Made by a program: the position numbers and the translations under genes
Shown here: piece by piece, positions 9,060-27,802 of the stretch
How the letters are laid out: each line of letters opens with the position of its first letter
Numbering within the stretch: position 1 is the first letter of the stretch
Notes under the pieces: generated by a model
What the model saw: the letters and a program-made list of their open reading frames with translations, nothing else
The model's database searches: none
Told to the model about the DNA's origin: nothing
Assembly (NCBI GenBank): GCA_963790305.1
Contig: CAWBOC010000009.1
Span: forward strand, 32,001-96,000
DNA: 64,000 nucleotides
Direction: 5' to 3'
Source of the DNA: an uncultured Gemmatimonadaceae bacterium
GTDB lineage: Bacteria; Gemmatimonadota; Gemmatimonadetes; Gemmatimonadales; Gemmatimonadaceae

Positions 9060-10120
9060 AGGCGTTTAGTGTACCCGGGCTCACAAATGGTGTCAAGAAA
9101 ACCCGAGGTGCTCGAGGCACGTCGAGGTGCGTCGAGGTGCTCAAGGTGCGGCTGCGGTTCTGGGCGCGAGGCTTGCCCTCGATCACCTCGAGCACCTGGA
9201 GCACCTTGGTCTCCAAGCAACGCCGCCAACGCACTCTCCCGCGCCGCACGCTCCGCGGCGGCATCGGCGGCCCGCATCGCCTCCAGGCGCCGACGGTCAC
9301 GGCGCCGCCGCGCCACGTAGAGGGGCACCACGACGAGCATCAGCAGCGCCGCCGCCAGCGAGAGATCGGCCGCGATCGCGAGGGCGCCGTACTGCCGGCG
9401 GGTCCGCTGTCGCCATCGCTCCTCGAACTGCGCCTGGGTCACGCCGAAGGCGCGACGGATCGAGACCTCCAGCGATCGCGTTTCGCGCCAGTACTGGAAG
9501 AAGAGCGTGAGCCCGCGCTCCGGATCCAGCGCGGCGAGCTCCGCGACCGCCCGATGCGCGAGCGCGTACGCGGCGTCGGCGCGCGAGGCGCCGCCGGCGA
9601 ACGTCGCATCGAGCGAATCGAGCGTCGGCATTCCGCGCACGAGCAGGGCGACGCTCGTCGCGAGCACCTCTTCTCGACCCCATTCCCCTGCCGCGACGCT
9701 GGCGTAGCCCTCGTGGAACCATCGCGGCGGGAGGTCGCCTAACGCCTCGTCGAGCGCGAGGTGCGCCAGCTCGTGCCGCAGGACGACCACGCGGGGATCG
9801 CCGGCATCGGAGCCGGCGGTGCGGCCCTGCATGATGATCGTGCGCTGCGCGGGAAACGCGATCGCGGCGCCCCACTCCGGGGCCGCGGGACCGATCCATT
9901 CACGAAATCGCCGCTCGTCGGGTGCCACCGCGATGACGACGCGGGCGCGCGGCCGCGGCAGCCAGGGGAAGCTGTCCCGCTCGGCCGCGGCGGTGAGCAG
10001 CGAGCGCATGAGCTGGTTGTCACTCGGATACCCGATGATCGTGAAACGATCCCGGACGAGGCGATGTGGCGCGCTCGGTTGTGCGAAGAGAGATGATGCG
10101 AGAACGACCGCCGCGATCAG
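8939..10120 (-). CDS. Peptidase MA-like zinc metalloprotease with signal peptide and C-terminal TM; start and stop uncertain
   Basis: LRHELAH followed by PRWFHEG; TM AAALLMLVVVPLYV; the tail overlaps a promoter and a small ORF, so the true stop is probably near 9180. Confidence 0.75.
   Translation of the reverse strand: MIAAVVLASSLFAQPSAPHRLVRDRFTIIGYPSDNQLMRSLLTAAAERDSFPWLPRPRARVVIAVAPDERRFREWIGPAAPEWGAAIAFPAQRTIIMQGRTAGSDAGDPRVVVLRHELAHLALDEALGDLPPRWFHEGYASVAAGEWGREEVLATSVALLVRGMPTLDSLDATFAGGASRADAAYALAHRAVAELAALDPERGLTLFFQYWRETRSLEVSIRRAFGVTQAQFEERWRQRTRRQYGALAIAADLSLAAALLMLVVVPLYVARRRRDRRRLEAMRAADAAAERAARESALAALLGDQGAPGARGDRGQASRPEPQPHLEHLDAPRRASSTSGFLDTICEPGYTKRLCPIRKRGRGGARHCGGVPRFSRLASGTRISPAEELPWHP
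9068..9096 (-). promoter_or_regulatory. Near-consensus sigma70 promoter
   Basis: TTGACA-17nt-TACACT, 8 nt upstream of ATG 9059. Confidence 0.75.
9104..9210. repeat. Inverted 9-mer tandem repeats (GAGGTGCTC / GAGCACCTS)
   Basis: cgaggtgctcgaggcacgtcgaggtgcgtcgaggtgctcaaggtgc ... cacctcgagcacctggagcacctt. Confidence 0.6.
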
Positions 10121-11017
10121 GCCGTGGCGCGCGACCGCGAGAGCGAGCCTCCACCCTCGACGTGCTTCAGCATCTCTCCGCAGCGCTTTCCCCATGGATT
10201 GAACTTGTTCGTGCGATGTCCGTCGCGCCACGCATCCATGGCCGCGTCCTTCTGCTCATCGAACCAGAGCGCGCGGCCGAGCTCGAAGTACGCCTCGACG
10301 AGATTCGGGCCGATTTGCAGCGTCTTCTTGAAGAAGGTCTGCGCATCCTCGTACATCTCGCGCTCGAGATACACGAGACCGAGGTAGAAGTGCGCGTACA
10401 GCGTCGCCTTCCGGTCGTTGTCGAGACGGATGGCCTTCGACAGATGCTCGATCGCCTCACCGAAGATGCGCTTCTTGAGGCAAATGTAGCCGACGTTGAT
10501 GCGCGCGAGCGCGTTGGCCGGCTCGCGCATCAGCACCTTCTGGAAGTTCAAGAGCGCGTCGTCGTACTTCTCCTGGAGCATCTGCGCCCATCCCAACAGG
10601 GACTCCGACTGCGGATCGTCGGGCGCGAGCTGCAGCGCACGCGTCAGTGCCTTCTCGGCGCCGTCGTACTCCCCGAGGGAGATGAGGCTCCATCCCTTCT
10701 CGATGAACGTCGAAGCGCCGAGGTGGTCCGCCATGGGCTTCGGACGCTCCGGAGCGAACTGTGGGGCGGCGCCGGGCGAGGTCGACGTCGCGCTCACCGG
10801 GGCCGCCGCCGCCTGCGAGGACTTCCACTTCTCGACGAGCCGCTTTACGTCGTCCTTGAGCGTCGAGAGCTCCGCGATCTGCGCTTCGACCTGCTTGAAG
10901 AGCGAGACAATGTCGCCCTTGAGCGCTTCGCGCTCAGCGGGCGTCGACGCCGCGTCGAGGCGCGCGTTGATGCGCCGCATAACGGGACCGCAAATCGCCA
11001 GCCCCGCCGTCAGGCAT
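10117..11017 (-). CDS. Coiled-coil plus TPR protein (apparent frameshift near 10975)
   Basis: N-terminal coiled coil, then five TPRs (AEKALTRALQLAP, ALARINVGY, AHFYLG, AYFELG); probable ATG at 11017 overlapping the cheW stop region. Confidence 0.8.
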
Positions 11018-11489
11018 TGTGGGTCGCTCCATCCGCCGCACGCTCGAGCACGAGGCGCTCGTCGGTCGTCAGCAGCCTCGTCACCTCGAGGAAGACGATG
11101 AGGCGATCATTGCGACGCACCACACCGCGCAGGAACTCGGCGGAGAGGCCGCGAAAGAGCGGCGGTGGTGGCGCCAACTCGTCCGACGTCGGGCTGGCGA
11201 CCTCGAGGACGGCGTCCACGATGGCGCCGATCCAGTCGTTCCCCACCGAGAAGACGAGAATGCGCGACTCCGGCCGTGGCTCGATGCTCTCGAGGCCAAA
11301 GCGCAGACGCAGATCGATCACCGGGATGATCCGGCCTCGATACTCGATGACTCCGTCCACCCATTCCGGCACGTTGGGAATGGGCGTCGGCGGCTGGTAG
11401 CGGAGCACGCGCTCCACCGAATAGATGTCGGCGGCGAACAAGTCATCGCCAAGCCGGAAGGTAACGAGCTGCTGTGCGACCGCGGTCAT
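11010..11489 (-). CDS. cheW: CheW coupling protein
   Basis: QLVTFRLG, PTPIPNVPEWVDGVIEYRGRIIPVIDLR, IGAIVDAV; ATGA overlap with upstream cheW. Confidence 0.9.
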   Translation of the reverse strand: MTAVAQQLVTFRLGDDLFAADIYSVERVLRYQPPTPIPNVPEWVDGVIEYRGRIIPVIDLRLRFGLESIEPRPESRILVFSVGNDWIGAIVDAVLEVASPTSDELAPPPPLFRGLSAEFLRGVVRRNDRLIVFLEVTRLLTTDERLVLERAADGATHNA

Positions 11490-12144
11490 ACCGCCTCCGT
11501 GAGCTGATCCGCCAAACACGCCAGCGCCAGCGACTCGGCGTCGATGAGCGCGAGAAGATCGGCCCCGCGACGGATGACCCCGAGAAGCACGTTGTCATCG
11601 TTGTCGGGGATCGGTGCCCGTCGAACCGCCGCGCCATCGATCGTGAGCACATCCTCGACGTCGTCGACCGCGAGGCCCAGCCGCTTCTCGCGCGATCGCA
11701 GAACGAGCACCGCCGCGGCATCGCGTCCAAGCGCAACGCGCAGCACGCGCTCGGGGGAGTAGATCGGAACGAGCCGCTCCCGGAGCTCGAACACACCCAG
11801 CAGGTGGTCGGGCATCTCCGGCAGATGATGGACCGAGGGCAGCTCGATGGCCTCCTCGACCGCCCCGAGATCGACGGCGAACCGCTCATCTCCGACCCGA
11901 AACACCAGCGTGTCGGACAGCCCTTCCCGCGCTGCGATGGCCTCCCGCAGTGGACGTCGGGTCGGCCCCGATGGCTCTTGATCTTCGAACCGGCGCAGGC
12001 GCCAGCGGCGCTGGAAGCGCTAGAGGCGCTAAAGGCGCTCGGACAGCGTCGGAGCCTCACTGGTGCGTCACTGCCGTCGCGCTCCGCTTGCGCAGGCGTG
12101 CGGCGTGAGCGCTTTCGGCTGTCCGGCTTCTTCTTCTTCGTCAT
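11486..12144 (-). CDS. cheW: CheW-like protein with low-complexity N-terminal extension (frameshifted)
   Basis: FRVGDERFAVDL, LPEMPDHLLGVFELRERLVPIY, LGLAVDDVEDV; start uncertain. Confidence 0.75.
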
Positions 12145-12227
12145 AGCTCGGTACTCGTTGGAGCGCACTGGCTCCAGAGCGGTTAAGTCGAGCGCCTTCA
12201 GCGCCGCCTAGCGCCTCTAGCGCCTCT
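12004..12227. repeat. Pair of inverted 9-mer tandem arrays (AGAGGCGCT / AGCGCCTCT)
   Basis: gcgctggaagcgctagaggcgctaaaggcgct near 12008-12039 and agcgccttcagcgccgcctagcgcctctagcgcctct at 12191-12227. Confidence 0.6.
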
Positions 12228-12258
12228 GACTGAACGGACAGTTCACGCGGAGGCGGCG

Positions 12259-13341
12259 TCACATCACCCCGCTACCCCTGAAGGTCAGCAAATCGGTGAC
12301 GGCGCCGGCGATCGCCGGCAGCGGAAGCACCTGGTCGATTCCCCCCGCCTGCAGCGCCGCGTGCGGCATTCCGTAGATGATCGACGTCGCCTTGTCTTGA
12401 GCGACACCAAGCCCGCCGGCTTCGTGAATGGCCCGCATCCCTTCCGCCCCATCGCGTCCCATGCCTGTCAGCACCACGCCGATCGCCGCTGCGCCGAAGA
12501 CCTCGGCGACGGACTTGAAGAGCGGGTCCGCCGACGGACGCACTCCCCACACCGGCGGTGAGCTGTCGAGCGAGATGACCGGAACTCCGCCCTGAACGCG
12601 CACGCGCATGTGCTGGCCGCCTGGAGCGAGATACACCCGATTGTGCACGACGCGCTCACCATCGCACGCCTCGGCCACGGTGAGTCGCGAGTGAAGGTCG
12701 AGGCGATCGGCCAGGCTCTTCGTAAAGCCTGCGGGCATGTGCTGCACTATGAGCACGGCGGCATCGAGGTCGGGCCGGAGCGCGGGAATGAGATCGGCCA
12801 GGGCCCGCGGTCCGCCGGTGGACGCGGCGATCGCCACGGCACGCGTGGCCCAGGAGCCACCGCCAGCGATGGCCCGTCCAGCCATCGGCGGGTCGGCGCG
12901 GCGAGAGAGCATGGGCATGCCGCGCAGATTCACTTCGCGCGACGCGCGGAGTGCGTCGAGCAGCCGATCGCGAACGCTATCGAGATCGAGTGAGATCGGC
13001 CCGCTCGGCTTCTTGACGAAATCGACCGCCCCGAGCTCGAGGGCCCGGATGGCCGGATCGCGTCCCGACTCGGCCGCCGCGCCGCTCAGCATCACCACCG
13101 GGCGCGGTGTCTCGCTCATGATGTAGCCCAGCGCACCGATGCCATCGAGCTCGGGCATCTCGATGTCCAGCGTGACGAGATCGGGATCGAGGGCGTGAAT
13201 CTTCTTCAGCGCTTCGAGGCCGTTGCGCGCCGTCCCGACGACGCGGAACTCCGCCGAGCCATCGATCATCTCGGAGACGAGCTTGCGCATGAAGGCGCTG
13301 TCGTCGACGACGAGGACCGTCGGCAGCCTAGAGGATGACAT
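12259..13341 (-). CDS. cheB: Chemotaxis methylesterase, REC-CheB
   Basis: VVDDSAFMR, TLDIEMP; catalytic ASTGGP, QHMP, LTGMGRDG. Confidence 0.96.
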   Translation of the reverse strand: MSSSRLPTVLVVDDSAFMRKLVSEMIDGSAEFRVVGTARNGLEALKKIHALDPDLVTLDIEMPELDGIGALGYIMSETPRPVVMLSGAAAESGRDPAIRALELGAVDFVKKPSGPISLDLDSVRDRLLDALRASREVNLRGMPMLSRRADPPMAGRAIAGGGSWATRAVAIAASTGGPRALADLIPALRPDLDAAVLIVQHMPAGFTKSLADRLDLHSRLTVAEACDGERVVHNRVYLAPGGQHMRVRVQGGVPVISLDSSPPVWGVRPSADPLFKSVAEVFGAAAIGVVLTGMGRDGAEGMRAIHEAGGLGVAQDKATSIIYGMPHAALQAGGIDQVLPLPAIAGAVTDLLTFRGSGVM

Positions 13342-13819
13342 GCCCGGCCCTCAGCGATTTCACCGTGAGGCGGCCATCGCGGACGTCGAAGTACACGCTG
13401 CGACCGTAATCCCCACCGACTTCCTGCGCGACGATCGGAATGCCCGCGTGCTCGAGTGCGGCCCGCGTCGCGACCACGTTCCTCTCCCCGATTTGAAGCC
13501 CCGTCGCCGACAGCAGCGAGGTGAACATGCTCGCGCCGCCGACGATCTTGGCCCGCATGCGCCCCGTGCGCGCGCCTAACGCCTGCATGCGCTCGCACAG
13601 GAGCGGCACCGCCGTCGACGGGAACTTCGCCCGGTTGGACCGGTCCTGCGACATGCCAGTGCTCGGCAGGAGCACGTGCGCCAGTCCGCCGATGCGCGCT
13701 TCCGGGTCGTGCAGCGCGATCGCCACGCAGGAGCCCAGCCCCACCGTGACGAGGAGTGTGCCGCCATTGGCGACGGCAAAGTCCGCCACCTTCACGCGGA
13801 TCTCGGTCGGGGCGCTCAC
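13328..13819 (-). CDS. cheD: Chemoreceptor glutamine deamidase CheD
   Basis: GLGSCVAIAL, GGLAHVLLP, AKIVGGASMF, IGERN, VGGDYGRSV. Confidence 0.95.
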   Translation of the reverse strand: MSAPTEIRVKVADFAVANGGTLLVTVGLGSCVAIALHDPEARIGGLAHVLLPSTGMSQDRSNRAKFPSTAVPLLCERMQALGARTGRMRAKIVGGASMFTSLLSATGLQIGERNVVATRAALEHAGIPIVAQEVGGDYGRSVYFDVRDGRLTVKSLRAGHVIL

Positions 13820-14640
13820 GGCTTCCGGAAGATGCGCTCGCGCGGATTCACCGGCACGAACAGGTTTCGCGTGGGACCGAGGAGCGTTTCCACTTTTCCG
13901 AGGACGAGAAACCCGCCCGGCACGAGCGCGTCGAAAAACCGCTGGAAGAGCAGCTCCTGGGAAACGCGGTCGAAGTAGATGATGACGTTGCGACAGGTGA
14001 TGAGGTCGAGCCCCCCCGACGGTGTCGGCTCGTGAAGCAGGTCGCGTCGCTCGAACTGCACCATCGCCTTTACGCGTGGATCGAGCGAGTGGGGCGGCTT
14101 GGGCGTGAAGTACCGGCGTCGGATCGCCGGCGGCGTGTCGGCGAAGGCGTCCTCGCCGAAGGTGCCACGCTCCGCCGCCTTGAGACTCAGGCGATCAATG
14201 TCGGTCCCGAGGATCATGATGCGGGACAGCGCTTTCTCATCCTTGCGTTGCATCGCCTCGCGGTGCAGCAGGATCGCGAGCGAGTAGGGCTCCTCTCCCG
14301 ACGCGCAGCCCGCGCTCCAGCACCGAATGTGCTCGTCGCTCGCTGGCCACAGGGCGGGAATCACATCCTCGGCGATGGCGGCGAACGTCTCCCAGTTTCG
14401 AAAAAGCTTGGTGACGTTGATGGTGAGCGCATCGAGCAGGAGCTCGTACTCGCGCGCGTCGCCATCGAGGATCGCGGCGTAGTCGCGATAGGTATGGACA
14501 CCGCGGGCACGCATACGCACCGCGATGCGGCGACGAAGGCATTTTTCCTTGTAGCTGGCGCACCCGAAGCCGCGCTCACGCGAGATCTTCTCCGTGAGCG
14601 CGGCGAACTCCGCGTCGGCCGGCTGCTGCTGGACGCTCAC
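13816..14640 (-). CDS. cheR: Chemotaxis methyltransferase CheR
   Basis: TINVTKLFRN, WSAGCASGEEPYS, GTDID, CRNVIIYFD; GTG 14640 overlaps the upstream stop. Confidence 0.95.
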   Translation of the reverse strand: MSVQQQPADAEFAALTEKISRERGFGCASYKEKCLRRRIAVRMRARGVHTYRDYAAILDGDAREYELLLDALTINVTKLFRNWETFAAIAEDVIPALWPASDEHIRCWSAGCASGEEPYSLAILLHREAMQRKDEKALSRIMILGTDIDRLSLKAAERGTFGEDAFADTPPAIRRRYFTPKPPHSLDPRVKAMVQFERRDLLHEPTPSGGLDLITCRNVIIYFDRVSQELLFQRFFDALVPGGFLVLGKVETLLGPTRNLFVPVNPRERIFRKP

Positions 14641-16256
14641 ATCACCGTCCGGACGAGGTCGAGATTGGTGCGAATGAGCGCGTTCTCGGGATCCAGCTCG
14701 AGCGCTTTCTCCCAGCACTCGAGCGCCGCCTCGCGCTCGTGCTTGCGATAGCGAATGTTGCCCATCTTGAACCACACGTCGTGCCCCTGCCCCGGCGCCA
14801 GCCGTGCGGCACGCTCGTACGATTCCAGTGCGCGATCGTACTGCCCAGCGCGATAGTGGCAGTCGCCGAGGTTCTTGTGCAGGTGCGGCAGCCCGCTGTC
14901 GTCGCCGAGGCCGGTTTCAGCCGCCTCCACTGCCTGACGATACTGCCCCGCGCGCTCGAGGAGCGTCGCCTTGAGATTGTGGAGCGCCGCCACGTGCGGA
15001 TGCACGGTGAGCGCCTCGTCCACCAGCGCCGAGGCGCGCTCGAAGTCGCCGCCGAGCGCCGCGGCCAGGGCGGCGTAATGGAACCAGGGGGCCGTCGGTT
15101 TGCGCTTGCCGAACAGCGGCCGCGCCGCCGCGAGGAGCGCGTCACCCTCGTCGAGCTGCCCGCGCCTGAGGGCCACGATGCCAAGCGCGATCTGCACGCG
15201 AGGGTCCGCCCCGCCCCCGCGACTCACCGCTTCCTCGAGCGCGATCTGCGCGTCATCGAGCCGCCCGGTCCGCTCGAGCACGAAGGCGAGGTTGTGGAAG
15301 ACCGCCGCCGGAGCGTTCGGTTGGCTTGCCGCCTCGCGCAACGACTCCTCGGCCTGCGGCAGGCGTTCGTTACGCAGGTGCACGAGCGCCATGTAGAAGA
15401 GCGCCTGCCCGTCGTTCGGCCGCAGCTCGGCGACACGTCGGAACTCGCGCGTGGCTTCCTCGTACATGCCGGTCTTGTAGAAGGCGATGCCGAGGTTGCG
15501 GTGCTCCTCGACGCGCGCCTCCCGGACGACGGCATCGGACGCTTTCGACTTGCCGATGCGGTGCAGAAAGCCGGCGGTCGCGAGACCGTAGAGCGCCTTG
15601 CCGACCTCGAACTCGCCGAGGCCCGACTCATCGACGAGTGCAGCGACATCGCGCCGCCCGTCGACCAGCGGGATGAGCTGCTCCTGCTCCATCGTGAGCT
15701 CGGCATCACTGGCGGCCAGCTTGGTGCGATCGAGCTCGAAGATGATGTCGAAGCTCGGGATCTTCTTCTCGATGAGGCTCCACTCGTCGACACGCCGTGC
15801 CCCCTCGAGCAGCAACGACTCCGGGTTGATCGACACCAGAAAGTCGCGCTCGTCAGGCAGCACGTCGGCCTCGAAGCTGAACGTGCCCTGCGTCCAGGTG
15901 AAGAGGAAATACACGGCCTCCTCGATCTGGAGACGGATGTACCGGTGCAGCTCCTCGCGCGTGAGGATCTTCTGCTCGATGAGGATCTCACCGAGCCGCT
16001 TGTCGCGCTGGCGACTCTGGGCCTGGATCGCGGAGTCGAGCTCCTGCTGCGTGATGAGCCCGTTCTTGACGAGAATGTCGCCGAGGCGATCGCGGCGGTT
16101 CACGATCGACGCGTACGAGATACGACCGCGCGAGAAGTACACCGTGCCGAAGCTGCTGCGGTCCGCCACGCTCAGACATCCCGTCTTCTGCCCCATGGCG
16201 AGCAGCTGGAGGACGTCCGGAAGGCTGGCTTCGCGAAGACTGCCTTTGATCGCCAT
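14637..16256 (-). CDS. DUF4388 (PatA-N-like) plus MshEN-like motif plus TPR protein
   Basis: KGSLREASLPDVLQLL...KTGCL; tandem RLG motifs; LLLEGARRVDEW; C-terminal TPRs. Confidence 0.85.
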   Translation of the reverse strand: MAIKGSLREASLPDVLQLLAMGQKTGCLSVADRSSFGTVYFSRGRISYASIVNRRDRLGDILVKNGLITQQELDSAIQAQSRQRDKRLGEILIEQKILTREELHRYIRLQIEEAVYFLFTWTQGTFSFEADVLPDERDFLVSINPESLLLEGARRVDEWSLIEKKIPSFDIIFELDRTKLAASDAELTMEQEQLIPLVDGRRDVAALVDESGLGEFEVGKALYGLATAGFLHRIGKSKASDAVVREARVEEHRNLGIAFYKTGMYEEATREFRRVAELRPNDGQALFYMALVHLRNERLPQAEESLREAASQPNAPAAVFHNLAFVLERTGRLDDAQIALEEAVSRGGGADPRVQIALGIVALRRGQLDEGDALLAAARPLFGKRKPTAPWFHYAALAAALGGDFERASALVDEALTVHPHVAALHNLKATLLERAGQYRQAVEAAETGLGDDSGLPHLHKNLGDCHYRAGQYDRALESYERAARLAPGQGHDVWFKMGNIRYRKHEREAALECWEKALELDPENALIRTNLDLVRTVM

Positions 16257-18170
16257 CAGCGGAGATCCTCAATGATGCGCCCGGCAAGGTCGGGCCAATC
16301 CCACACGGTCTTTTCGCGGTCGCCGAAGTGCGTGTCGCCTGACGGCGTGGCGCGATGCACCGGCGTTGACCGGCGCACCGATGTCACCCGCGCGACATCA
16401 GCGCTCGTAAGGCGCCGGTTGTCATTGCCCGCCATCTCGGCCAGCCGTTCGCCCACGCGAAGCACGTCGCGGGCGGTTGGCATCTCCAGCGCAGCCGCCG
16501 CGTGCAGCACCTCGGGAGCGGGCTCCACCCCTGCGGCAGCGAGTGCGCGGGCGATGAGCTTTTCGCGCAGCAGTCGGTCCGGTGGCTGGATCTCGACGAC
16601 GAGACCACCCTCGAACCGCGAGCGCAGCCGTTCGTCCATCTCGGTCAGCGTGCGCGGCGCGCGCGAGGAGGTGAGGACGACCTGCTTCCCCGCCTCCATG
16701 AGGGTGTTGAAGAGATGAAAAAACTCGTCCTGCGTTCGCTCCGTGCCAGCGAACATCTCGATCTGATCGATCAGCAACGCGTCCACACGGCGGTAGCGTC
16801 CACGCCAGGTCTCGATCGCGCTGTCCTGAAGCGCCGCGATCAGCTCGTTCACGAAGTCGCTGGCGTTCACGCAGGCGATCGTCATCGCGCCGCCACTCGC
16901 GCCGGCGAGCTCGTTCCCGATCGCATGCAGGAGATGCGTCTTCCCCACGCCGGGACTTCCGTGGATGACCAGCGGGTTGTACCGGCGGCCCGGCTCCTCG
17001 ACGATCGCGTCCGCGGCATGTACCGCCAGCTGGTTGGAGGGACCGACCTCGAACTCGGCACGAAGGAGCGACCCGTCGGGCGGCGGGGGCGGGGCCGAGT
17101 CGGCGCGAAGTGTCTCCGCCAATCGCTCGAGATCCTCGATCGCGTCCGGGTCGCGAAACTGCACCGAGCCGCGCTGCGTGGGATCGAGCGCGACGATCTC
17201 CTGCTCCAGTGCGCGCAGCCGCGTGACCTTCTGCTCGAACTGCTGAAGAAGCGCGTCGGGATCCGCGGTATCGGGGCTCTGAAGCGCGCGCTCGAGCGCG
17301 GCTGTTCGGTACCCCTGCGTCCGCCATTCCGCTGTCAACTCGACGAGCCTCACTCGACGCGCATCGACATGCTGCGCGACGGCGACCGCCAGGCCCGAGA
17401 GGAAGCTTTCGTATTCTCCGCTCTTGGGGGCGAGACGCTGCGGTCCGCTGCCGTTGCCGCGATCGCCCAGCAGGCCCTGAATGCTCTCCACGGTCACATC
17501 GCCTTCGCCCAGTGTCTGAAACGCGATCAACCGGTTGATGGCGCCATGCATCTCGCGCACGTTGGCGAAGACGACGCGTGCAACCTCCTCGACGACGCCG
17601 GGTGGGAACGTCACGTCGCGCTCGTCGCACCGGCGCCGCAGGATCGCCACGCGCGTTTCGTAGTCGGGCGCGCCCATGTCGACGAGCAAGCCGCCGGAGA
17701 AGCGCGTCATCAGGCGGTCGTCGAGATCGGCGATCTCCGCCGGCGGCCGATCGCTGGTGAGCACGATCTGCTTGCCGCTCCTCTGCAACACGTTGAACAG
17801 CCGCAGCAGCTCGCTTTGCGTCTCCTGCCGTCCGGTGAGAAACTGCACATCGTCGAGGAGCAGGACATCGAGCGCCGCAAAACGCTGGCGGAACGCGTCC
17901 GTCTCCCCGCGCGTCACCGCCTGATGCAGAATGCTCGACGAGCTCATCGGTCGTGACGTACTCGGCCTGGAGATCGGGCTGCAGCTGCTTCGCGAGCTGT
18001 CCGATGGCGGACAGCAGGTGCGTCTTGCCGAGCCCCGATGCCGCGTAAATGAACAACGGGTTGTAGGCCGCTCCCGGCGACTGCGCGACTGCGCGCGCCG
18101 CCGAGACGGCGAGGCGGTTGGCCGCGCCGACGACGAAGGTGTCGAAGCGAGAGCGGACGTCGAGGGCCAT
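16256..18170 (-). CDS. Tandem double DnaA-type AAA+ protein lacking domains I and IV (apparent frameshift near 17935)
   Basis: Two copies of F..G..N.LA...YNPL.I...G.GKTHLL.AIG...D...GKQ.VLTS.R...RL..RF.GGL. Confidence 0.88.
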
Positions 18171-18782: not shown

Positions 18783-18787
18783 GATCG

Positions 18788-20468: not shown

Positions 20469-21606
20469 GGGCGCGCCCCGTCAACAATCCGTGGAGGGCG
20501 GACGCGCTCGCGAGCGCTTCACGCACACGAGCGGCATTCCCGCTGTTAGGCAGCATACGAAGGTAGCGCTCCCATGCCGCCATGGCTTCGCCAAGATCCC
20601 CTCGGGCCGCCGCGCAGTAGCCCGTCTCGAGATGGGTTTCGGCGTGCAGCGGGTCGAGCTGCAGCGCTCGCCGCAGCTCCTCGGCAGCGTCGTTGAGGCG
20701 ACCCGCTTTGCTCAGCGCACGGGCCATGGCGACCCGGGCCTCCGCCATCTGCGGATCGGCCGAGATCGCCTGGCGCGATGCCGCGAGCGATCCTTCCACG
20801 TTGCCGGATTCCAGCAGCGAACGCGCACGCTCAATGTGGGGGCGCGCATCCTCCGGTGCGCCCACGTGCTGCGGCGTCACCAGACGCGGGTCGCGCAGCT
20901 CGATGACACCCGTCGTCACCATCCCGTAGACGACCTTCGCGATGTCGAAATCGCTTTGCCCCAGACGCAATGCGATCTCGCGCAGGTCCTTGGCCCCATC
21001 GATCTCGGCGAGCACTTCCCACTCGTTGGGCAGCAGGTCGAGCAGCGACGGGTGATCGGCCCGCAAGGGCGCGAGCACCGGCACCACTCCGACGTGTGGC
21101 ACCTTGCCTTCTATGCGCGACCATTCGTCGATGCGGCGCGCGCCCTCCATGAGCAGCGACTCGGTCGAGATGCGCACCAATGCCTCGCTCGGCGCGTCCG
21201 AGATCGGGCGCTCCTCGAAGGAGAAGTATCCCTCTCGCCACGACATCAGCTCGAACACCACTTCCTCAATGTGGAGCCGCACGTGCCGCTCGAGCTCCTT
21301 CGGCGTCACCGCTCCCATCTCGAGGAGAATCTCGCCGAGTCGCCTCGCGTCTCCCTTCTGTTGCGTCGCTCGTGCCCGGTCCAGATCCGCTTCCGAGATC
21401 TTTCCCGCCCGCACCAGCATGTCGCCCAATCGATGCGGATTGCTGCGGATGGAGGCGAACACGACAGCGCCACCGTCGAAGAAGACGGTGCCCTGATTGT
21501 CGCGCAGCGCCGATACGACGCTCAGCGCGCCCGTCTTCCGGCTCAGGTCGAGCAGCTGGAAGACGTCGTGGATTCCAAGCTCGCGCAGCGGTCCTTCGAT
21601 CGGCAT
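20461..21606 (-). CDS. DUF4388 plus MshEN-like motif plus TPR protein (paralog of 14637..16256)
   Basis: EGPLRELGIHDVFQLLDLSRKTGAL, tandem RLG motifs, SLLMEGARRIDEW, TPRs. Confidence 0.85.
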   Translation of the reverse strand: MPIEGPLRELGIHDVFQLLDLSRKTGALSVVSALRDNQGTVFFDGGAVVFASIRSNPHRLGDMLVRAGKISEADLDRARATQQKGDARRLGEILLEMGAVTPKELERHVRLHIEEVVFELMSWREGYFSFEERPISDAPSEALVRISTESLLMEGARRIDEWSRIEGKVPHVGVVPVLAPLRADHPSLLDLLPNEWEVLAEIDGAKDLREIALRLGQSDFDIAKVVYGMVTTGVIELRDPRLVTPQHVGAPEDARPHIERARSLLESGNVEGSLAASRQAISADPQMAEARVAMARALSKAGRLNDAAEELRRALQLDPLHAETHLETGYCAAARGDLGEAMAAWERYLRMLPNSGNAARVREALASASALHGLLTGRAHG

Positions 21607-21608
21607 CG

Positions 21609-24314
21609 CTAGGCGACCTCCTCGCGCGAGCGGAAGATGCGCTGCAGGTCGGCCGCGGTCCGCGCATCGCGTCGCGCGCGTCGTGCGAACTCGCTGGCGG
21701 GCTCCACATCGACCACACGCTGCCACTTCGCGATCGCGTCGCGATACCGATGCTGCTCGGCGAGCAGAACCCCCTGGTAGTAGAGCGCTCCGGCATGATC
21801 AGGATCGAATCGCACAATGCGCTCGAACCCCGTGCGAGCATCGTCTCGCCGCTCGAGCGCCAGCAGCGTCTCGCCGAGCGCCAGGAGCGCGTCGAGGTTA
21901 TAGGGGTCGCGCTTCAACAGGTCGACGAGCGGGCCGAGCGCTTCCTTGGCGCGGCCGAAGTTGCGCCGGACCGCGGCAAGCTCGAGCGTCGCCTCGACGT
22001 ACGTAGGAACGGCTTCGAGCGCGGCGAGCAGATGCTCCTCCGCTTCCTTGGCCTGACCGCGCTCGGCCACCAGGCGCGCAAGCTCGAACCGCACGACCGC
22101 GAAATCCCGGTCCAGGTCGATGGCATCGCGATAGGCGATGATCGCGCCCTCGACGTCCCCCACCGCGCGCGCGACGTCGCCGATCTTCTGGAGAACATCC
22201 GGGCGCGCGGGCGCGAGACGACGCGCCTTGTCGAGATGCTCCAGAGCGCCCGCCGGGTCACCCTCGTCCGCGCGCGCCGAGGCGGCGAGCAGGAGCCCCT
22301 CCACGCTCGTTCCATCGACAGCGAGGAGCTCCTCGGCGACGACACGGGCTTCGGTGGCACGGCCGAGCACGAGCAGCGCGCGTGTCTCGCCTAACAGGGC
22401 GCGTGTCGGGACGTGACCGTTCAGGCCGCGCGCCTCGCGATAGCGCTCCAGCGCCTCGCCGAACAAGCCCTGGCGCGTGAACACATCACCGAGCAGCGCG
22501 AGCCCTTCCCCGCGGTCCCCGCCGCGCGTCATCGCGCGGCTGATCTCGGCCGACGCCCGCTCGAGCAGCCCTTTGGTGAGGTAGTCCACCGCCATCGCGT
22601 AGGGGTTCGCTTCCCCCGGCGCTGCGGTGTCCGCCTTCGCCGGCTTGAGCGACGTGAACAGCGAGTCGAGGACGCGTGCGTCGAAGGCGAACTCTTCGAC
22701 GCTCTCGTCCTGGCGCTTCTCACCGCCAAGGTCGGGGACGATCGAGAGGTCGGGATCCTCGTACTCGAGATCGATCGCCAGCTCGAACTTTTGCGCGACG
22801 TAGTACGGATCGATCTCGAGCGCGCGCTTCGTCTCACGCAGGGCGCCCTCGAAATCGCCGAGGTTGGAGAGCGCGAAGCTGAGATTGTAATGCGCTTCGG
22901 CGTACTCGGGACGTGCCTGAATGGCGCGGCCGAAGGCGTTGCGCGCATCCTCGTACTTCTTGAGCTCCGCCAGCACCAGACCGATCCCGTTCCACGCGAC
23001 GGGCTGCTCGGGCTCAACGGAAAGCACCTGGCGATACGCCTCCAGCGAGAGCTGAAGGCGCTTCCCCTTGAACAGCAGCAGGGCGAGGTTGAGCCACGCC
23101 TTGGTGAACGCCGCTTCGATACCGAGCGCGGCACGGAAGGCGTCGATGGCCTCTTCCGTTTGGCCGCCATGGTACAACGCCACGCCGAGATTGTTGTGCC
23201 CGATCGCGTACCGCGGATCGGACTCGAGTGCGGTGCGATAGCTCTGCGCCGCGTCGGCGTACCGGCCTTCCTGATGGAGTGCGACGCCCCGCTCCGCCCA
23301 GAGCTTGGGGCTGCCAGGCTGCTCGGCGACGAGCTGCTCGTAGAGCTCGTAGGCGGCGCGCGTATCCTTCCGCAGCAGGTGCACCTCGGCCATGGCCTGC
23401 ATAACGAGCAGGCGATCCTCACCCCGCTCCAGCGCAATGCGATACTCGCGTAGCGCCTCGGCGTAGTAGGCCTTCTGGCGAAACGCGAGCCCGAGATTGA
23501 AATGGGCGAGCGTCTTCTCTTCCGCGACCTCGAGCCGCTCGGCCGCGCGTCGACGCTGCTCGGGCAGGAGCGTCTCGTACCGAGCGTCCTTGTATCGCTC
23601 CAGGGAGAGGTTCGCCTGCGCGCGCGAGAGCGTCGGGTTGAGCGCGATCGCCCTCTTTTGCGCGGCACGTGCGTCCTCATGACGTCCCATGTCGCCGAGC
23701 ACGAACCCCATGAGGTAGTGCGCGTCGGGATTGTCGGGGTTGAGCTCGAGCGCGCGCTTGAGCGCGGCCAGCGCCTCGTCGTTGAGGCCGCGGTTGTAGA
23801 TGACCTCGCCGAGGTAGAAGTTCACCACCGAGCTGTTGGGCTCGAGCGCGAGCGCGCGCTCGAACCACTGCTGCGCCTTCTCGAGATCCCCGCTCGCCTT
23901 CTCGGCGAGCCCGAGCTGCACGATGGCACCGAGGTCTTCCGGGTGGTGCAGCAGGAGCGCGCTGAACTCGCGCACCGCTTCCGTCACGTTGCCGAGCGAG
24001 GCGTACGCGCGCCCGAGCTCCCAGCGGGCATCGCGGTCGTCGGGGCGTTGGCGGAGCCGCTCCGTCAGCTCGGAGACGCGACGGTCGTAGTAGCCGGTGT
24101 TGAAGTACGCGATCTCGAGGTTCCGCTGCGCGACCTGCATCTTCGAGTCGAGCTCGAGCGCGCGCGTGAATGCGGACACCGCTTCCTCGTAGAGTCCCTT
24201 GTTGAAGTAGAGAACCCCGAGGTTGTTATGCGCCCCCGCATCCGACGGATCGATCCGTCGAGCGAACGAGCGCAGGACCTCGCGGTCGCGCTCGGATGTG
24301 AGGACGGGGGTCAT
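21609..24314 (-). CDS. Large cytoplasmic multi-TPR protein (901 aa)
   Basis: Many TPRs (AHNNLG, AHYLMG, AHFNLG, AWNGIG, AHYNLS); no signal peptide. Confidence 0.88.
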   Translation of the reverse strand: MTPVLTSERDREVLRSFARRIDPSDAGAHNNLGVLYFNKGLYEEAVSAFTRALELDSKMQVAQRNLEIAYFNTGYYDRRVSELTERLRQRPDDRDARWELGRAYASLGNVTEAVREFSALLLHHPEDLGAIVQLGLAEKASGDLEKAQQWFERALALEPNSSVVNFYLGEVIYNRGLNDEALAALKRALELNPDNPDAHYLMGFVLGDMGRHEDARAAQKRAIALNPTLSRAQANLSLERYKDARYETLLPEQRRRAAERLEVAEEKTLAHFNLGLAFRQKAYYAEALREYRIALERGEDRLLVMQAMAEVHLLRKDTRAAYELYEQLVAEQPGSPKLWAERGVALHQEGRYADAAQSYRTALESDPRYAIGHNNLGVALYHGGQTEEAIDAFRAALGIEAAFTKAWLNLALLLFKGKRLQLSLEAYRQVLSVEPEQPVAWNGIGLVLAELKKYEDARNAFGRAIQARPEYAEAHYNLSFALSNLGDFEGALRETKRALEIDPYYVAQKFELAIDLEYEDPDLSIVPDLGGEKRQDESVEEFAFDARVLDSLFTSLKPAKADTAAPGEANPYAMAVDYLTKGLLERASAEISRAMTRGGDRGEGLALLGDVFTRQGLFGEALERYREARGLNGHVPTRALLGETRALLVLGRATEARVVAEELLAVDGTSVEGLLLAASARADEGDPAGALEHLDKARRLAPARPDVLQKIGDVARAVGDVEGAIIAYRDAIDLDRDFAVVRFELARLVAERGQAKEAEEHLLAALEAVPTYVEATLELAAVRRNFGRAKEALGPLVDLLKRDPYNLDALLALGETLLALERRDDARTGFERIVRFDPDHAGALYYQGVLLAEQHRYRDAIAKWQRVVDVEPASEFARRARRDARTAADLQRIFRSREEVA

Positions 24315-24317
24315 GCG

Positions 24318-24938
24318 TCAGGCCAGTCGTACCGCGCGAAGGATGGCTTGCAGCGACGCGAGGTCCGGCAGCAGGAGGAAGAAGCCGCGGAGATGCTCGT
24401 TCTGCTCCTGGAGGAAGAACTGGCTCTCGACGTAGAAGACGTGATCGCGATCGGTGCCGAACTGCAGGAAGGCTGTCGACAGGATCGCGGAGGACATGTC
24501 GATGGCGAGGCTCGGCGGCGACGGCAGGAGCATGAGGCCCATGAAATCGCTCAGCGCGTTCATGTACGCGCCGCTGAGAATGTTTCCAGCCTCCTTGATC
24601 GCCGACTGCTCGAGCGCACCCATCTCCTGCGAGGAGCCGGACGGGCGGCGCAGCATGAGCTCGGCGAGCCGCATGGCCGTCGGTCGCGGAAAGACGAGCA
24701 GCGTTCGGCCCGTGAGGTCGCCGAGCATGTGCATCAGCACGGCGGCAATCGGCTCTTCCGGCTCGCTGAGCTGCGTCGGCACGTCCTCGAGCGACGAGAT
24801 GTTGATCGTCGGCACGCTGATCATGATCGTGCTGCCGGTCATCTGCGAAAGCGCCGTCGCCGCATGGCCCGCCCCGATGTTGGCCACTTCGCGCAGTGCA
24901 TCGAGCTGGACGGCCTTCAATTCCTTGATGTCGTTCAT
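24318..24938 (-). CDS. cheC: CheC-family CheY-P phosphatase
   Basis: Two phosphatase motifs, DALREVANIGAGHAATALS and SAIKEAGNIL. Confidence 0.93.
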   Translation of the reverse strand: MNDIKELKAVQLDALREVANIGAGHAATALSQMTGSTIMISVPTINISSLEDVPTQLSEPEEPIAAVLMHMLGDLTGRTLLVFPRPTAMRLAELMLRRPSGSSQEMGALEQSAIKEAGNILSGAYMNALSDFMGLMLLPSPPSLAIDMSSAILSTAFLQFGTDRDHVFYVESQFFLQEQNEHLRGFFLLLPDLASLQAILRAVRLA

Positions 24939-24946
24939 TCTCTCCT

Positions 24947-26843
24947 CTACAGAAGGCTGCCCACGTCCACGATCAGCGCCGGGGCCCCGTCGCCCAGGAT
25001 GGTCGCGCCGCTGAACAACGCGGCCGCGTTTCGAACGGCATCGAACTGCTTCACCACGATGTCCTGCTGCCCCGCGAGCTCGTCGACAACCAGTCCGGCG
25101 CGACGTTCCCCGACCTCCAGCACGATCACCTGGGGCATGCGCGCGCCGTCGGCGGCGAGGCCGAGCAACGACCGGAATCGCACGAGTGGCAGCACGTCGT
25201 CGCGAAGCATGAGCACCTCGTGGCCTTTCACCGATTTGAGGGCGGCGCCTTCCAGCTCGACGGTCTCGTTCACGTGCGTCATCGGGACGGCGAACGTGTC
25301 GCCATCCACGCGGACGAGCAGCGCGCGCAGAATCGCCAACGTGAGCGGCAGGCGCAGCGTCACCGTGGTGCCGCGCCCGGGAATGGAGCGAATCTCCACC
25401 GAGCCCCCGAGCGAGCGGATGCGAGCGTGCACGACGTCGATGCCCACGCCTCGGCCCGAGATGTCGGTGACGCGCTCGGCGGTCGAGAAACCCGGCCGTG
25501 AGATGAGGCGAATCAGATCATCGTCGTTGAGCTCGGTGCGTCCCGTATCGACGAGACCGAGATGCCGCGCCTTGGCGAGCACTCGATCGCGATCGATGCC
25601 TCGCCCGTCGTCGCTCACGCGAATGGTGATCGACGAGCGCTCGCGCGCCGCCGACAACACGAGCTTTCCTGCCGGAGGCTTCCCCGCCGCGACGCGCTCG
25701 GACGCCGACTCGAACCCGTGATCGATCGCGTTGCGCAGGAGGTGAACGACGGGATCGCCGATCTCGTCGAGCATGGACCGGTCGAGCTCGATCTCCTTCC
25801 CTTCGATGGTGAACTCGATCTGTTTGCCCAGCGACCGCGCTGCGTCCCGAACGAGCCGCGGGAAGCGGTCGAACACCTGCCACACCGGCACCATGCGGCT
25901 GGCCATGATCTGGTCCTGCAGATCGGAGACGAGCCGCGACGCTTCGGTGACGGCCTCGGTCAGCGCCGGATCATCGCGGGTGATCGCGAGCTGAACCAGC
26001 CGGCCGCGGGTGATCACGAGCTCCCCGATGAGGTTCATGAGCGCATCGAGGCGGCGGAGATCGATGCGCACGTTGCGCGAGGAGCGCGCGCGTCCCGATT
26101 CGGCGGCTTTGGCCGCGGCGCGGGCCTTGGGATCCTCAATGTCTACGCGATCGACGTCCCCGGCGGCGCGGAGCGCCGAGGCGATATCCGCCGGGGGCGC
26201 ATCGGTCTCGAGACGGATGGCGAACTCGCGATCGAACTGCTCGGCCTGAAGCGCCTCCACCGGCGGGAGCACCTCGAGCACGCGGCCTAACGATTCTGCT
26301 CGCTTCACCACCACGAAGGCACGCACGCCCCGGAGCGGAGCGTTGGCGGCGAGGCGGATGCGGATCAGCAGTTGCGAAGGCGCGAGAGGCGCTGAGAGGC
26401 GCGAGGGGCGCTGGGGGCGCTGAGAGCGCTGGAGAAGCGCTGGTGATGGCCGGGAATTCGCCGCTCATGCGGCCCATCGCACGCAGCCGCTCGATCACCG
26501 GGCTCGCATCCGCCGTCGCATCCTGACCGCGCACCGCTTGCTCCACCGACGTCTCGAGCACATCGGCCGCCTCGAAAAGCGCGTCCATGACGGTCGGCGT
26601 GATCTTCCGCTCTCCGCGCCGCACGGCGTCGAGTACCGTCTCCAGCTCGTGCGTCAGCGTCGCGACCGCCTCGTACCCCATCGTCGCGCTCATCCCCTTC
26701 ACCGTGTGCACCGCGCGAAAGATCGCGCTCAACGGCTCCGCAGCCGCTGGGTCGCGCTCCAGCTCCAGCAGCAGATGGTTGATCGCCGAAAGGTGCTCTC
26801 GGCTCTCCGTCAGGAAGAGGTCGGCGTAACGGGTGAGATCCAT
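24947..26843 (-). CDS. cheA: Chemotaxis histidine kinase CheA, P1-P5 (apparent frameshift near 26360)
   Basis: FRAVHTVKGMSATMG (Hpt), LDALMNLIGELVI, HLLRNAIDHG, DDGRGID, GFSTAERVTDISGRGVG, LPLTLAI. Confidence 0.95.
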
Positions 26844-26849
26844 GGCCCT

Positions 26850-26975
26850 GGGGTCAGGAGTCAGGAGTCAGTGGTCAGGGGGTGTCGGGGTCTAGGTGTG
26901 AGGAGACCGGCTCGCGCATGCCCTGACTCCGACCACCTGACACCCCCTGATCCCTGACTCCTGACTCCTGACCCC
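26850..26975. repeat. Heptamer-repeat hairpin (TCAGGAG/CTCCTGA) filling the cheY-cheA spacer
   Basis: Perfect 22-bp inverted arms at 26850-26871 and 26954-26975. Confidence 0.9.
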
Positions 26976-26978
26976 TCG

Positions 26979-27341
26979 TTATCCAAGTACTCGCTGCACT
27001 GCTTCGAGAACTCTGCTCGGTTGGAAGGGCTTGACGACAAAGTCCTTCGCGCCTGCCTGAATCGCTTCGACCACGAGCGCCTGCTGCCCCATGGCGCTGC
27101 ACATGAGGACCTTCGCGTTCGGGTCGAGCTTCGTGATCTCACGCACCGCATCGATCCCGCCCATGTCCGGCATCACGATGTCCATCGTTACGAGATCGGG
27201 TCGCAGCTGCTTGTACTTCTCGACGGCCTGGACGCCCGTCTCAGCCTCCCCGACGATCTCGAAGCCGGACTGCTGCAGGATGTCGCCGATCATCGTGCGC
27301 ATGAAGATGGCGTCATCGCAGATCAGCACCGTGTGACTCAC
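26979..27341 (-). CDS. cheY: CheY single-domain response regulator
   Basis: VLICDDAIFMR, VTMDIVMP, CSAMGQQ, FVVKPF. Confidence 0.93.
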   Translation of the reverse strand: MSHTVLICDDAIFMRTMIGDILQQSGFEIVGEAETGVQAVEKYKQLRPDLVTMDIVMPDMGGIDAVREITKLDPNAKVLMCSAMGQQALVVEAIQAGAKDFVVKPFQPSRVLEAVQRVLG

Positions 27342-27352
27342 CGTTCCCTCCG

Positions 27353-27802
27353 CTAGAGCAGGACGTGCTTGATGATGGAGTGGATGTCGAGGATAATGAC
27401 GACTTTGTCGTCCATTCGTCCCAAGCCGACGATCGATGCATCTTCGCCATCGCGCTCCGTCGCGTGCTCGATCGATTCGGCGGGAAGCATCATGACGTCG
27501 TTCACTTCCGCGACGGCGATTCCGACGAGCTTTTGACGGTGCTCCACGAGGATCACGGAGCCATCCGACGCGAGCGAGCTGTTCCCGTCCAGGCGTGAGC
27601 CGAGGTCGAGAACGGTGACGATCGTCCCGCGAACGTTGATCAGCCCGGCGACGTAGGCGGGCGCGCCGGGGACGCGCGTGGCGCGTCGCACGGGGAGGAT
27701 CTCGCGCACCGCGTCGAGATCGATCCCGTAGAGCCGGTCGCCGAGGCGGAACAGCACCAGGCGGCGAACGGGGACATCAAAGGTTGGTGCGGTAGAAGCC
27801 AA
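27353..27802 (-). CDS. cheW: CheW coupling protein
   Basis: LVLFRLG, TRVPGAPAYVAGLINVRGTIVTVLDL. Confidence 0.9.
   Translation of the reverse strand: MASTAPTFDVPVRRLVLFRLGDRLYGIDLDAVREILPVRRATRVPGAPAYVAGLINVRGTIVTVLDLGSRLDGNSSLASDGSVILVEHRQKLVGIAVAEVNDVMMLPAESIEHATERDGEDASIVGLGRMDDKVVIILDIHSIIKHVLL

Follow-up and report, generated by a model that had tools for sequence, protein, structure and literature searches.

What could a gene string do that places a Che-type chemosensory pathway, a polarity GTPase and a DnaA-type ATPase side by side, and do these parts form one system? We followed up an earlier note on such a string in a 64,000-nucleotide stretch (the window) from an uncultured Gemmatimonadaceae bacterium. 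Gemmatimonadota are abundant in soil and, to our knowledge, their behaviour is almost unstudied. Across a widespread group of soil bacteria, genes for the two, Che-type pathway and polarity GTPase, are strung together in this way.

Make-up of the gene string

We checked gene identities and order on the minus strand of the window with Pfam and NCBIfam. Both were borne out from cheW-cheY-cheA-cheC through to cheR-cheD-cheB, with a count of 18 genes where 19 had been claimed. The genes had also been called mostly overlapping, which holds for only about half: 8 of the 17 junctions overlap, and 14 of 17 either overlap or are at most 11 bp wide, the longest gaps being 135 bp and about 114 bp. The first cheW (27353..27802; PF01584, E 4.7e-34) has its start codon overlapped by rluD, so the string probably begins further upstream. 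It is followed by a cheY of the Thermotoga/Bacillus type (26979..27341), which at a mean identity of 85% is better conserved than any other gene here and has its phospho-acceptor motif in 24 of 25, by cheA (24947..26843), to which profile matches and comparison with relatives assign the domain order Hpt-P2-dimer-HATPase-CheW, and by the phosphatase gene cheC (24318..24938), with both ExxN motifs in 26 of 26.

Domain searches identify the next genes as those for a 901-aa all-TPR protein (21609..24314), SgmX-like by analogy only, for a PATAN (DUF4388) protein with an MshEN-type insert and TPR repeats (copy a, 20461..21606), for a TPR-Roadblock fusion (19629..20468) and for a stand-alone Roadblock/LC7 protein (19282..19632). 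An MglB-like GAP (18788..19285; best PDB match MglB 6h5b, E 1.5e-11), a Group 1 MglA GTPase (18174..18782), the DnaA-type protein (16256..18170) and a second PATAN-TPR protein with a tandem MshEN-type insert (copy b, or PATAN-b, 14637..16256) complete the middle of the string. Beyond them lie cheR (13816..14640), cheD (13328..13819; Pfam/NCBIfam), cheB with receiver and methylesterase domains (12259..13341), the second and third cheW copies (11486..12144 and 11010..11489) and a 287-aa TPR protein present in most loci (10117..10980), all assigned by domain search. The usual downstream neighbour, by domain search and comparison with relatives, is a peptidase MA-like gene on the same strand (8939..10085, start approximate).

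Three genes are frameshifted in this assembly. Compared with G169, an extra base near 26395 splits cheA and another near 17930 splits the double-DnaA gene, the latter seen again in comparison with L288; among relatives, cheA is a single ORF in 26 of 26 and the double-DnaA gene in 26 of 28. The second cheW is cut off by a frameshift from an upstream ATG near 12144, and its N-terminal extension, out of frame here, is in frame in G169. Because ileS (three ORFs) and rsmH (two) are also broken in the same window, the breaks are most likely sequencing indels or assembly errors.

The Group 1 motifs of MglA are intact, which upholds its identification: the intrinsic arginine (defined for this group in sections of PMC4316618) stands beside the G2 threonine in 30 of 30 operon copies, and TVPGQ in G3 and NKxD in G4 are each found in 29 of 30. 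No MglB homologue was detected beside mglA in seven genomes (G065, G101, G134, G092, G193, G112, G166). This MglA is a second copy, a canonical mglBA lying elsewhere, after recR (contig C9, 255 kb, of G000, the window's own genome). The note knew of no characterised operon with such a make-up, yet the central piece of the string already has a row in the Wuichet and Sogaard-Andersen supplement, entered for Gemmatimonas aurantiaca T-27 (GAU_1409) as 'PATAN>MglA>-PATAN>' (PMC4316618 file 3). The che genes and the DnaA-type gene go unnamed in that row, and passages of the paper offer no function.

Chemosensory class and candidate output

The presence of a P2-containing CheA with CheC and CheD agrees with the proposed Bacillus/Thermotoga/Dif-type set; the best NCBIfam models are a Thermotogales CheC and a Firmicutes CheD, both below cut-off. 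A CheA with P2 plus CheC and CheD defines the F1/Dif-like class, to which we take the Dif pathway of Myxococcus xanthus and the Dif-like clusters of Geobacter to belong. All seven receptor genes of genome G000 lie on other contigs, and the cluster contains no 44H receptor gene. The stretch after the tip measures 152-157 residues in four of the seven, is longer in two and is shorter in one; one receptor aligns along T. maritima 2ch7, presumably a 44H receptor.

The locus CheA has P2 and no receiver domain and is thus not a FrzE-type CheA-CheY hybrid, FrzE having a receiver and lacking P2 in the table of PMC3945109. The Frz and MglA/MglB system of M. xanthus, with SgmX, FrzS and SopA, shares with the locus a Group 1 MglA (intrinsic arginine, TVPGQ), a Roadblock GAP, TPR effector logic and chemosensory input. 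It differs in that the Che set here is of the CheC/CheD/P2 type, the genes stand in one string, MglA is a second copy, and the constant core consists of PATAN adaptors and the DnaA-type ATPase.

To the reading of the locus as a non-flagellar hub that integrates signals and would most likely govern the activity of type IV pili or their polar placement, we assign a probability of about one half, the output being argued by analogy. In its favour, we found no FliG, flagellin or FliM/N in G000 (94% complete), where the cheA of the string is the sole CheA found and four PilT-family genes score above cut-off. FliG is also absent from 75 of the 100 genomes with cheA and mglA on one contig among the matches listed, which points to a non-flagellar output in most genomes. 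PATAN, the domain also known as DUF4388, binds PilB1 and PilC in Synechocystis according to passages of 10.1101/2021.06.11.447907, and in sections of PMC11580455 the TPR protein SgmX is the route by which MglA acts on pili. No direct SgmX-PilB contact was found in that work on Myxococcus. Against it, no pilus genes were noted in the locus, and in 6 of the 25 flagellated linked genomes the locus CheA is the only one found among the matches listed. PilM-family matches occur in 195 of 201 phylum genomes, including lineages without the locus, and in control genomes as well, so that co-occurrence with pili says little.

A different output, which we consider rather unlikely, is Dif-like control of exopolysaccharide, adhesion or biofilm, with the Che block driving matrix production and pili serving as upstream sensors instead of the target. 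The order cheW-cheY-cheA-cheC is similar to the dif gene order, difC-D-E-G, and c-di-GMP motifs are compatible with a sessility switch. P2 CheA, CheW, CheY, CheC, CheD and a presumed non-flagellar use, with long and perhaps 44H-like receptors encoded elsewhere in the genome, link the locus to Dif and the Dif-like Geobacter clusters (the class features fit portions of PMC2577667), and listings in PMC3945109 give DifE as the M. xanthus CheA with P2 and DifA and McpK as 44H. However, the locus has no receptor gene, unlike those clusters, and has GTPase, Roadblock, PATAN and ATPase genes inserted and three CheW copies; no polysaccharide genes were noted beside it, and its core persists without any Che gene.

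Linkage, separate losses and the constant core

Gene order is conserved across relatives. Wherever the matches listed put cheA and mglA on one contig (100 of 100 genomes), the two share a strand and cheA is the upstream gene, at a distance of 4-9.5 kb; a further 16 genomes have them on different contigs, and 14 have no cheA among those matches. The linkage is therefore not due to chance. The REP repeat that marks the locus was found in 135 of the 201 phylum genomes searched.

The blocks are nevertheless lost separately. Four genomes keep the Mgl block and have lost the Che genes (G107, G110, G147, G091), four keep the Che genes and have lost MglA (G070, G072, G182, G050), and two core-only loci have neither block and keep the peptidase MA-like gene (G114, G157). 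From these separate losses we infer that Che and Mgl are parallel inputs, a new result here; the idea of one system, if meant as an obligatory chain, is not supported.

Could the string then be a conserved neighbourhood in which two or three systems of separate function merely adjoin, such as a Che set of ancestral flagellar type and an MglA/PATAN module that has nothing to do with it? Independent loss, the at least five changes that CheA loss takes on the PATAN-b tree, the canonical mglBA elsewhere and the six flagellated genomes with no other CheA among the matches listed would all fit. We think it decidedly unlikely, since the core has Che genes to either side of it, joined by stop and start codons that overlap, the linked genomes show this order without exception, the 75 without FliG keep the Che set, and 19 of the 25 flagellated ones have further CheA matches, several 19-86 kb from fliG (matches listed in each case).

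The constant part of the locus is the conserved C-terminal tail of the DnaA-type protein (16259..16340, with a W-x-W-P motif) and the adjacent PATAN/MshEN-TPR gene, which is also new here. PATAN-b directly follows the tail in 50 of 50 genome loci (24 of which built the model), in 74 of 74 metagenome loci (none of which did) and in 3 of 3 loci of a separate check, with reverse-strand controls of 0/50 and 0/74. Eight loci that have lost both ATPase domains retain it as an ORF of 67-104 codons, a mini-protein of ~70 residues, and four of these have also lost MglA. The mini-protein has only one or two origins, so the eight cases are not independent, which tells against the hub reading.

We predict that the tail probably binds the TPR groove of PATAN-b. 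A folding model of the G112 pair docked it there with a score of 0.79, against 0.01 for the best control; 116 of 157 solved complexes came up to that mark, as did 2 of 215 mismatched pairs. The runs for this pair have at least 71% of contacts in common, with a partner pLDDT of at least 53. Since solved structures include many TPR-peptide complexes, the model may have passed on likeness.

Both PATAN copies score above cut-off for PF14332 and for the MshEN model NF053729 (49.4 bits for copy a and 52.7 for copy b; cut-off 38), so the suggested c-di-GMP input is supported at the level of motifs. In the tandem RLG motif of copy b, the first site is kept in 29 of 30 and the strict tandem pattern in 20 of 30; the insert is deleted in 7 of 50 loci, all in one clade. 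Synthesis genes are present in G000 (16 GGDEF-domain matches). The cyanobacterial PatA-type regulators PixE, PixG and LsiR likewise combine PATAN with an alpha-clip/MshEN-type insert and are encoded with chemosensory genes. Their C-terminal receiver domain is replaced here by TPR arrays, with the ATPase tail as predicted ligand.

The DnaA-type protein and a proposed mechanism

In this locus the protein runs ATPase 1, helical repeat, ATPase 2, tail. The description as a double DnaA is correct here and not constant, there being one ATPase domain in G104, G047 and G186 and none in the eight mini-protein loci. ATPase 1 has the AAA+ domain III features of the DnaA initiator in 20-23 of 23 per motif (Walker A and Walker B 23, arginine finger 22, sensor II 20), as the hub reading would expect. 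ATPase 2 is decayed (Walker A and Walker B 15/20, sensor I 5/20, sensor II 10/20), with the DnaA-like segment after Walker B retained. The ATPase domain is 42% identical to B. subtilis DnaA domain III (TM 0.94), and the possibility that it arose as a duplicate of the dnaA native to the phylum was not rejected (AU p 0.30).

The protein shares its fold and catalytic motifs with DnaA domain III and Hda, and differs from both in its tandem or single ATPase joined to a helical repeat and tail. Neither domain I nor the DnaA-box-binding domain IV was found on the intact G169 protein, the only domain IV match in G000 is dnaA on contig C5, and a complete separate dnaA is present in 25 of 25 phylum genomes. 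Hda models score below cut-off, and by eye the ATPase appears to start at about residue 4, which would leave no room for the N-terminal clamp-binding motif of Hda.

The linker between the ATPase domains, a helical repeat unit of about 110 residues (REP, 17084..17419), is shared with tandem-repeat proteins of Thermoplasmata, a new result here. Those proteins also have DnaA ATPase domains without a DNA-binding domain, and the same kind of domain occurs in 28 of 201 Thermoplasmatota genomes. One of them, a single case, is fused to a pilus assembly ATPase in a pilin-TadC-type operon, which favours the hub reading. Against this, the loci read for neighbours hold 50 archaeal DnaA-domain proteins, of which 1 is the fusion, the other 47 regions showed no homologue of its operon's pilus genes out to about 7 kb, and the best 120 matches include no second such fusion, its nearest relatives there being ordinary bacterial DnaAs.

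It is likewise decidedly unlikely that the ATPase instead co-assembles with real DnaA or binds single-stranded DNA, coupling polarity to replication initiation in cell-cycle or division-asymmetry control: the likeness to domain III, the arginine finger, the retained segment in ATPase 2, the possible duplication and the peptidase gene of the minimal locus speak for it, but domains I and IV are missing, dnaA is complete elsewhere, the tail persists in eight loci without either ATPase domain, and a domain of the same kind occurs in archaea, where replication is initiated by Orc1/Cdc6.

Returning to the hub, its core would be the tail seated in the TPR groove of PATAN-b, conserved as observed and bound as predicted. 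Three separately dispensable inputs may reach it: a Thermotoga/Bacillus/Dif-type Che pathway whose long-class receptors have their genes outside the locus, a second MglA dedicated to it along with Roadblock GAPs and TPR scaffolds, and c-di-GMP through the MshEN inserts. ATPase 1, its catalytic motifs kept, could cycle between an ATP-bound oligomer and an ADP-bound state and so cluster or release the bound PATAN adaptor, whose PATAN domain might act on the pilus motor PilB/PilC by analogy with cyanobacteria.

The locus offers a natural test of how a chemosensory signal gets to a polarity GTPase and the pilus motor, a link still to be made in Myxococcus, and narrows a puzzle of 18 genes down to a single contact that can be tested, that of a tail of roughly 25 residues with a TPR domain. 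A family of DnaA ATPase domains lacking a DNA-binding domain comes into view as well; its archaeal members carry the annotation of replication initiators, for which archaea should have no use. A broader view, which we hold tentatively and regard as doubtful, is that in a bacterial class and in Thermoplasmatota archaea the DnaA ATPase core has left replication to serve in signalling, as a module whose polymerisation depends on nucleotide; with the shared helical repeat and PATAN or DUF2226 adaptors it would position type IV filament motors, and here a single contact of tail and TPR would let it join inputs from chemosensing, the small GTPase and c-di-GMP. If true, this would make the repurposed DnaA core a signalling switch of a new kind, spanning two domains of life.

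A conserved gene string with separable modules

The locus (10117..27802, minus strand) contains every gene that the earlier note had named, all on the minus strand and in the order given there, but there are 18 genes rather than 19. The description of these genes as mostly overlapping holds as regards tight packing, since 14 of the 17 junctions overlap or are separated by 11 bp or less, but actual overlap occurs at only 8 of the 17, or about half. Three genes of the locus (cheA, the DnaA-like gene and the second cheW) are broken in the window assembly. Set against their counterparts in G169, which belongs to the same genus, both cheA and the DnaA-like gene have one extra base apiece; cheA is an unbroken ORF in 26 of 26 relatives and the DnaA-like gene in 26 of 28. 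In the second cheW, the frame of the N-terminal extension is lost. Because ileS and rsmH, which also lie in the window, are split too, we read the breaks as probable sequencing indels; programmed frameshifting was rejected on the single ORFs in relatives together with the split in ileS. A scan of the locus for promoters and terminators gave results at chance level.

The window holds several further features. A short repeated element is present in the cheY-cheA gap (26855-26970) and inside ileS (31724-31748). One 11-mer of this element has 241 copies in the genome of the window (G000), where 3 are expected, and a second 14-mer has 155 copies; the element resembles a family of interspersed repeats, with insertions within genes as well. 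The stretch from ileS to rluD also carries two copies of lspA and one dksA/traR gene (28805-30271), oriented in the same direction as the locus; a TPR-rich gene in several ORF pieces (6953-8750) lies downstream of a tRNA-like stretch at approximately 8760-8830.

Gene order is conserved in relatives, as a synteny search was to establish. Among the matches listed, at least 116 genomes have both operon-type mglA and cheA, and in all 100 where the two share a contig, cheA is upstream of the operon mglA by 4-9.5 kb on the same strand. The order from cheA to PATAN-b, the PATAN (DUF4388)/TPR gene with an MshEN insert (14637..16256, minus strand), is kept in all 24 metagenome loci whose upstream sequence extends for 9 kb or more, three of which have no mglB; the metagenome loci were drawn from the best 80 of 631 matches and are therefore close relatives. 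We detected the marker repeat of the DnaA-like gene in 135 of 201 genomes of the phylum (tallies include the unpublished genome G155) and in 0 of 17 genomes of other classes. Atlas clusters of the DnaA-like protein support Gemmatimonadota as the phylum. The usual flanks of the locus are rluD on one side and a peptidase gene on the other.

We scored module states over 50 loci and three more. Some have the complete string, four have lost the Che genes and kept the Mgl block (G107, G110, G147 and G091), four have lost MglA and kept the Che genes (G070, G072, G182 and G050), and two have lost both the Che and the Roadblock genes and kept MglA (G112 and G166). In G114 and G157 only the core is left, in the order rluD, double ATPase, PATAN-b, peptidase. 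The loss of cheA takes at least five changes on the PATAN-b tree. The Che and Mgl modules are separable.

The ATPase domains also vary, with two, one (G104, G047 and G186) or none (8 loci) per locus; the 8 loci without them trace to one or two origins. Catalytic motifs are kept in ATPase domain 1 and decayed in domain 2. In 7 of the 8 loci, where a mini-ORF is left, the MshEN insert and the ATPases are gone jointly, which is a single event on the tree and was not counted as evidence.

The tail of the DnaA-like protein and its predicted partner

The C-terminal tail of the DnaA-like protein (16256..18170, minus strand) is encoded directly upstream of PATAN-b in all 50 genome loci, of which 24 served to build the model, and likewise in all 74 metagenome loci, which are independent of it. 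Reverse-strand controls for the tail gave 0 matches. Where both ATPases are deleted, the mini-ORF that is left consists of one helix and the tail.

A monomer model has poor confidence in the tail region. In a complex model of the G112 pair, the mini-protein (69 residues) places its residues 44-69 in TPR residues 283-435 of PATAN-b. This complex scored 0.79, against 0.01 for the best of three controls, although TPR-peptide complexes are common among solved structures and likeness to them may contribute to the score; of 157 solved complexes, 116 attain that mark, as do 2 of 215 mismatched pairs. At least 71% of the contacts were common to the runs, with a partner pLDDT of at least 53. The complex model supports a predicted binding of the tail in the TPR groove of PATAN-b. 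Among the TPR columns of PATAN-b, N322 is present in 24 of 27 sequences and N427 in 21 of 27; a pattern for an asparagine ladder, probably mis-specified, was matched by 0 of 30.

Chemotaxis proteins, MglA and a possible pilus output

The genome of the window has one CheA and seven receptors, all of the latter outside the locus. The suggestion of a Bacillus/Thermotoga-type system is borne out by a P2 domain in CheA, by CheC and CheD, and by mostly long receptors, and the nearest solved structure to CheY is from T. maritima. Judged by sequence, the Che set appears to be of the Thermotoga/Bacillus/Dif type. A second cheR and a receiver-less cheB lie beside a response regulator at G000:C10:69,900-71,300 (region L044), with no cheA near.

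The operon MglA has intact Group 1 motifs and is the second MglA of the genome, whose canonical mglBA lies after recR at another site. That canonical pair is found behind dnaX-ybaB-recR at G000:C9:254,500-255,800 (L032), and its MglA has an insertion of approximately 30 residues before G5. In one genus (G105, G093 and G063; regions L266, L277 and L278), the operon MglA is strongly diverged, at 35-47% identity, and the 901-aa TPR gene is shortened or undetected, which suggests relaxed selection on the GTPase arm there.

Neither FliG nor FliM/N nor flagellin was detected in the genome of the window, which is 94% complete, and four PilT-family genes were over the cut-off. Among the matches listed, FliG is absent from 75 of 100 linked genomes; of the 25 that have it, 19 have further CheA matches, several of them near fliG, and 6 have none, so that a flagellar role is possible in those six. 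PilM-family matches occur in 195 of 201 genomes, which means that pili are available but that their overlap with the locus is uninformative. The proposed comparison of pilus and flagellar co-occurrence was informative on the flagellar side only: most carriers lack flagella, and in these the locus does not serve a flagellar system.

We put the probability at roughly 0.5 that the locus encodes a hub with output to the pilus motor. ATPase domain 1 would cluster the adaptor in an ATP-dependent manner, with inputs that may come from CheY-phosphate, MglA-GTP and c-di-GMP. The output to the pilus motor is proposed by analogy with PATAN-PilB1 binding in Synechocystis (10.1101/2021.06.11.447907) and with the MglA-SgmX-PilB pathway (PMC11580455), as the consulted portions of these papers present them. 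Control of matrix or adhesion instead is possible but rather unlikely. That these are separate systems merely co-located gains from the six FliG-bearing genomes without a further CheA match, and we regard it as improbable. Coupling to the cell cycle seems the least probable of these readings.

Archaeal relatives of the helical repeat, and known systems

Searching with a profile of the inter-ATPase linker gave 507 cluster representatives at E ≤0.001. The top matches are long and carry 4-25 copies in tandem; their named sources include Thermoplasmata and two other archaea, as well as Wallbacteria for one protein. A reciprocal profile, built on 69 repeats from 12 top-match proteins, had the 28 operon proteins as its sole matches among 6,952 ORFs, and profile-profile comparison gave a probability of 98.7%. 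A fold search with the repeat produced no clear-cut match (best Z 5.8, rmsd 6.0, 91 aligned), a result that says little for a helical bundle, and an Atlas search yielded no usable match. Two proteins of helical repeat, P0001 and P0009 (the latter from Candidatus Wallbacteria), have approximately 3,100 residues. In G048, a 666-codon ORF outside the locus (L285:7363-9360) contains a single copy of the helical repeat, with neither an ATPase nor a Pfam match.

Five of the top proteins combine 6-8 repeats with a DnaA ATPase domain. Such domains occur in 28 of 201 Thermoplasmatota genomes, with up to 8 matches each, and are fused to repeats in 17 of 49 proteins; other fusion partners are DUF835, TPR, HEAT, zinc ribbons and a DUF2226-like domain. 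Domain IV was found in none of the 35 archaeal proteins scanned, one of which is a proteasome ATPase. In a single case, an operon of a Thermoplasmata genome (L094:5719-13972), the DnaA domain is joined with a type IV filament assembly ATPase in one protein; the operon also contains a pilin, a DUF7289 protein and two TadC-type genes, and the fusion gene lies between the pilin and TadC-type genes. Regions L191-L237 (Thermoplasmatota) hold DnaA ATPases without domain IV, one with a ubiquitin-conjugating-like fusion (L206), and among the genes beside them are those for KaiC-like ATPases and a Ras/Roc GTPase (L230), and an MreB/salactin-like gene (L198). Several related archaeal proteins are labelled chromosomal replication initiator by their sources.

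No MglA or MglB/Roadblock neighbours of the archaeal genes were found by blastp, nor was the tail motif found beside them. The archaeal N-terminal domain matched DUF2226 in 5 of 14 cases, 2 of them over the cut-off, and its profile comparison with PATAN gave a probability of only 0.3, too low to show homology. In trees, which used a bacterial DnaA sample biased by the search motif, the operon ATPase domains group separately from the dnaA of the phylum, in clades of their own. An AU test on 38 of 138 rows (LG+G4, long rows excluded) rejected neither of two groupings for them, whether with dnaA of the phylum (p 0.30) or with their archaeal counterparts (p 0.69).

On the features tested, the locus falls outside Frz, the Dif-like clusters and the PatA regulators, and its DnaA-like protein falls outside DnaA. 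By analogy, it would function as if a Dif-type pathway (PMC2577667, PMC3945109), an MglA polarity switch (PMC3441718, PMC4316618) and PATAN adaptors had been merged, as far as the consulted portions of those papers describe them. Our search of open-access literature, judged on its listings, found no description of the whole locus, the DnaA-type protein or the repeat. Within that search, the claim that no operon of this make-up has been characterised stands for the whole, but one piece of it, PATAN-MglA-PATAN, is already recorded for Gemmatimonas aurantiaca T-27 in a supplement row of PMC4316618. The locus is real and undescribed, and it combines known kinds of part with one sharply testable contact, that predicted between the tail and the TPR domain of PATAN-b.
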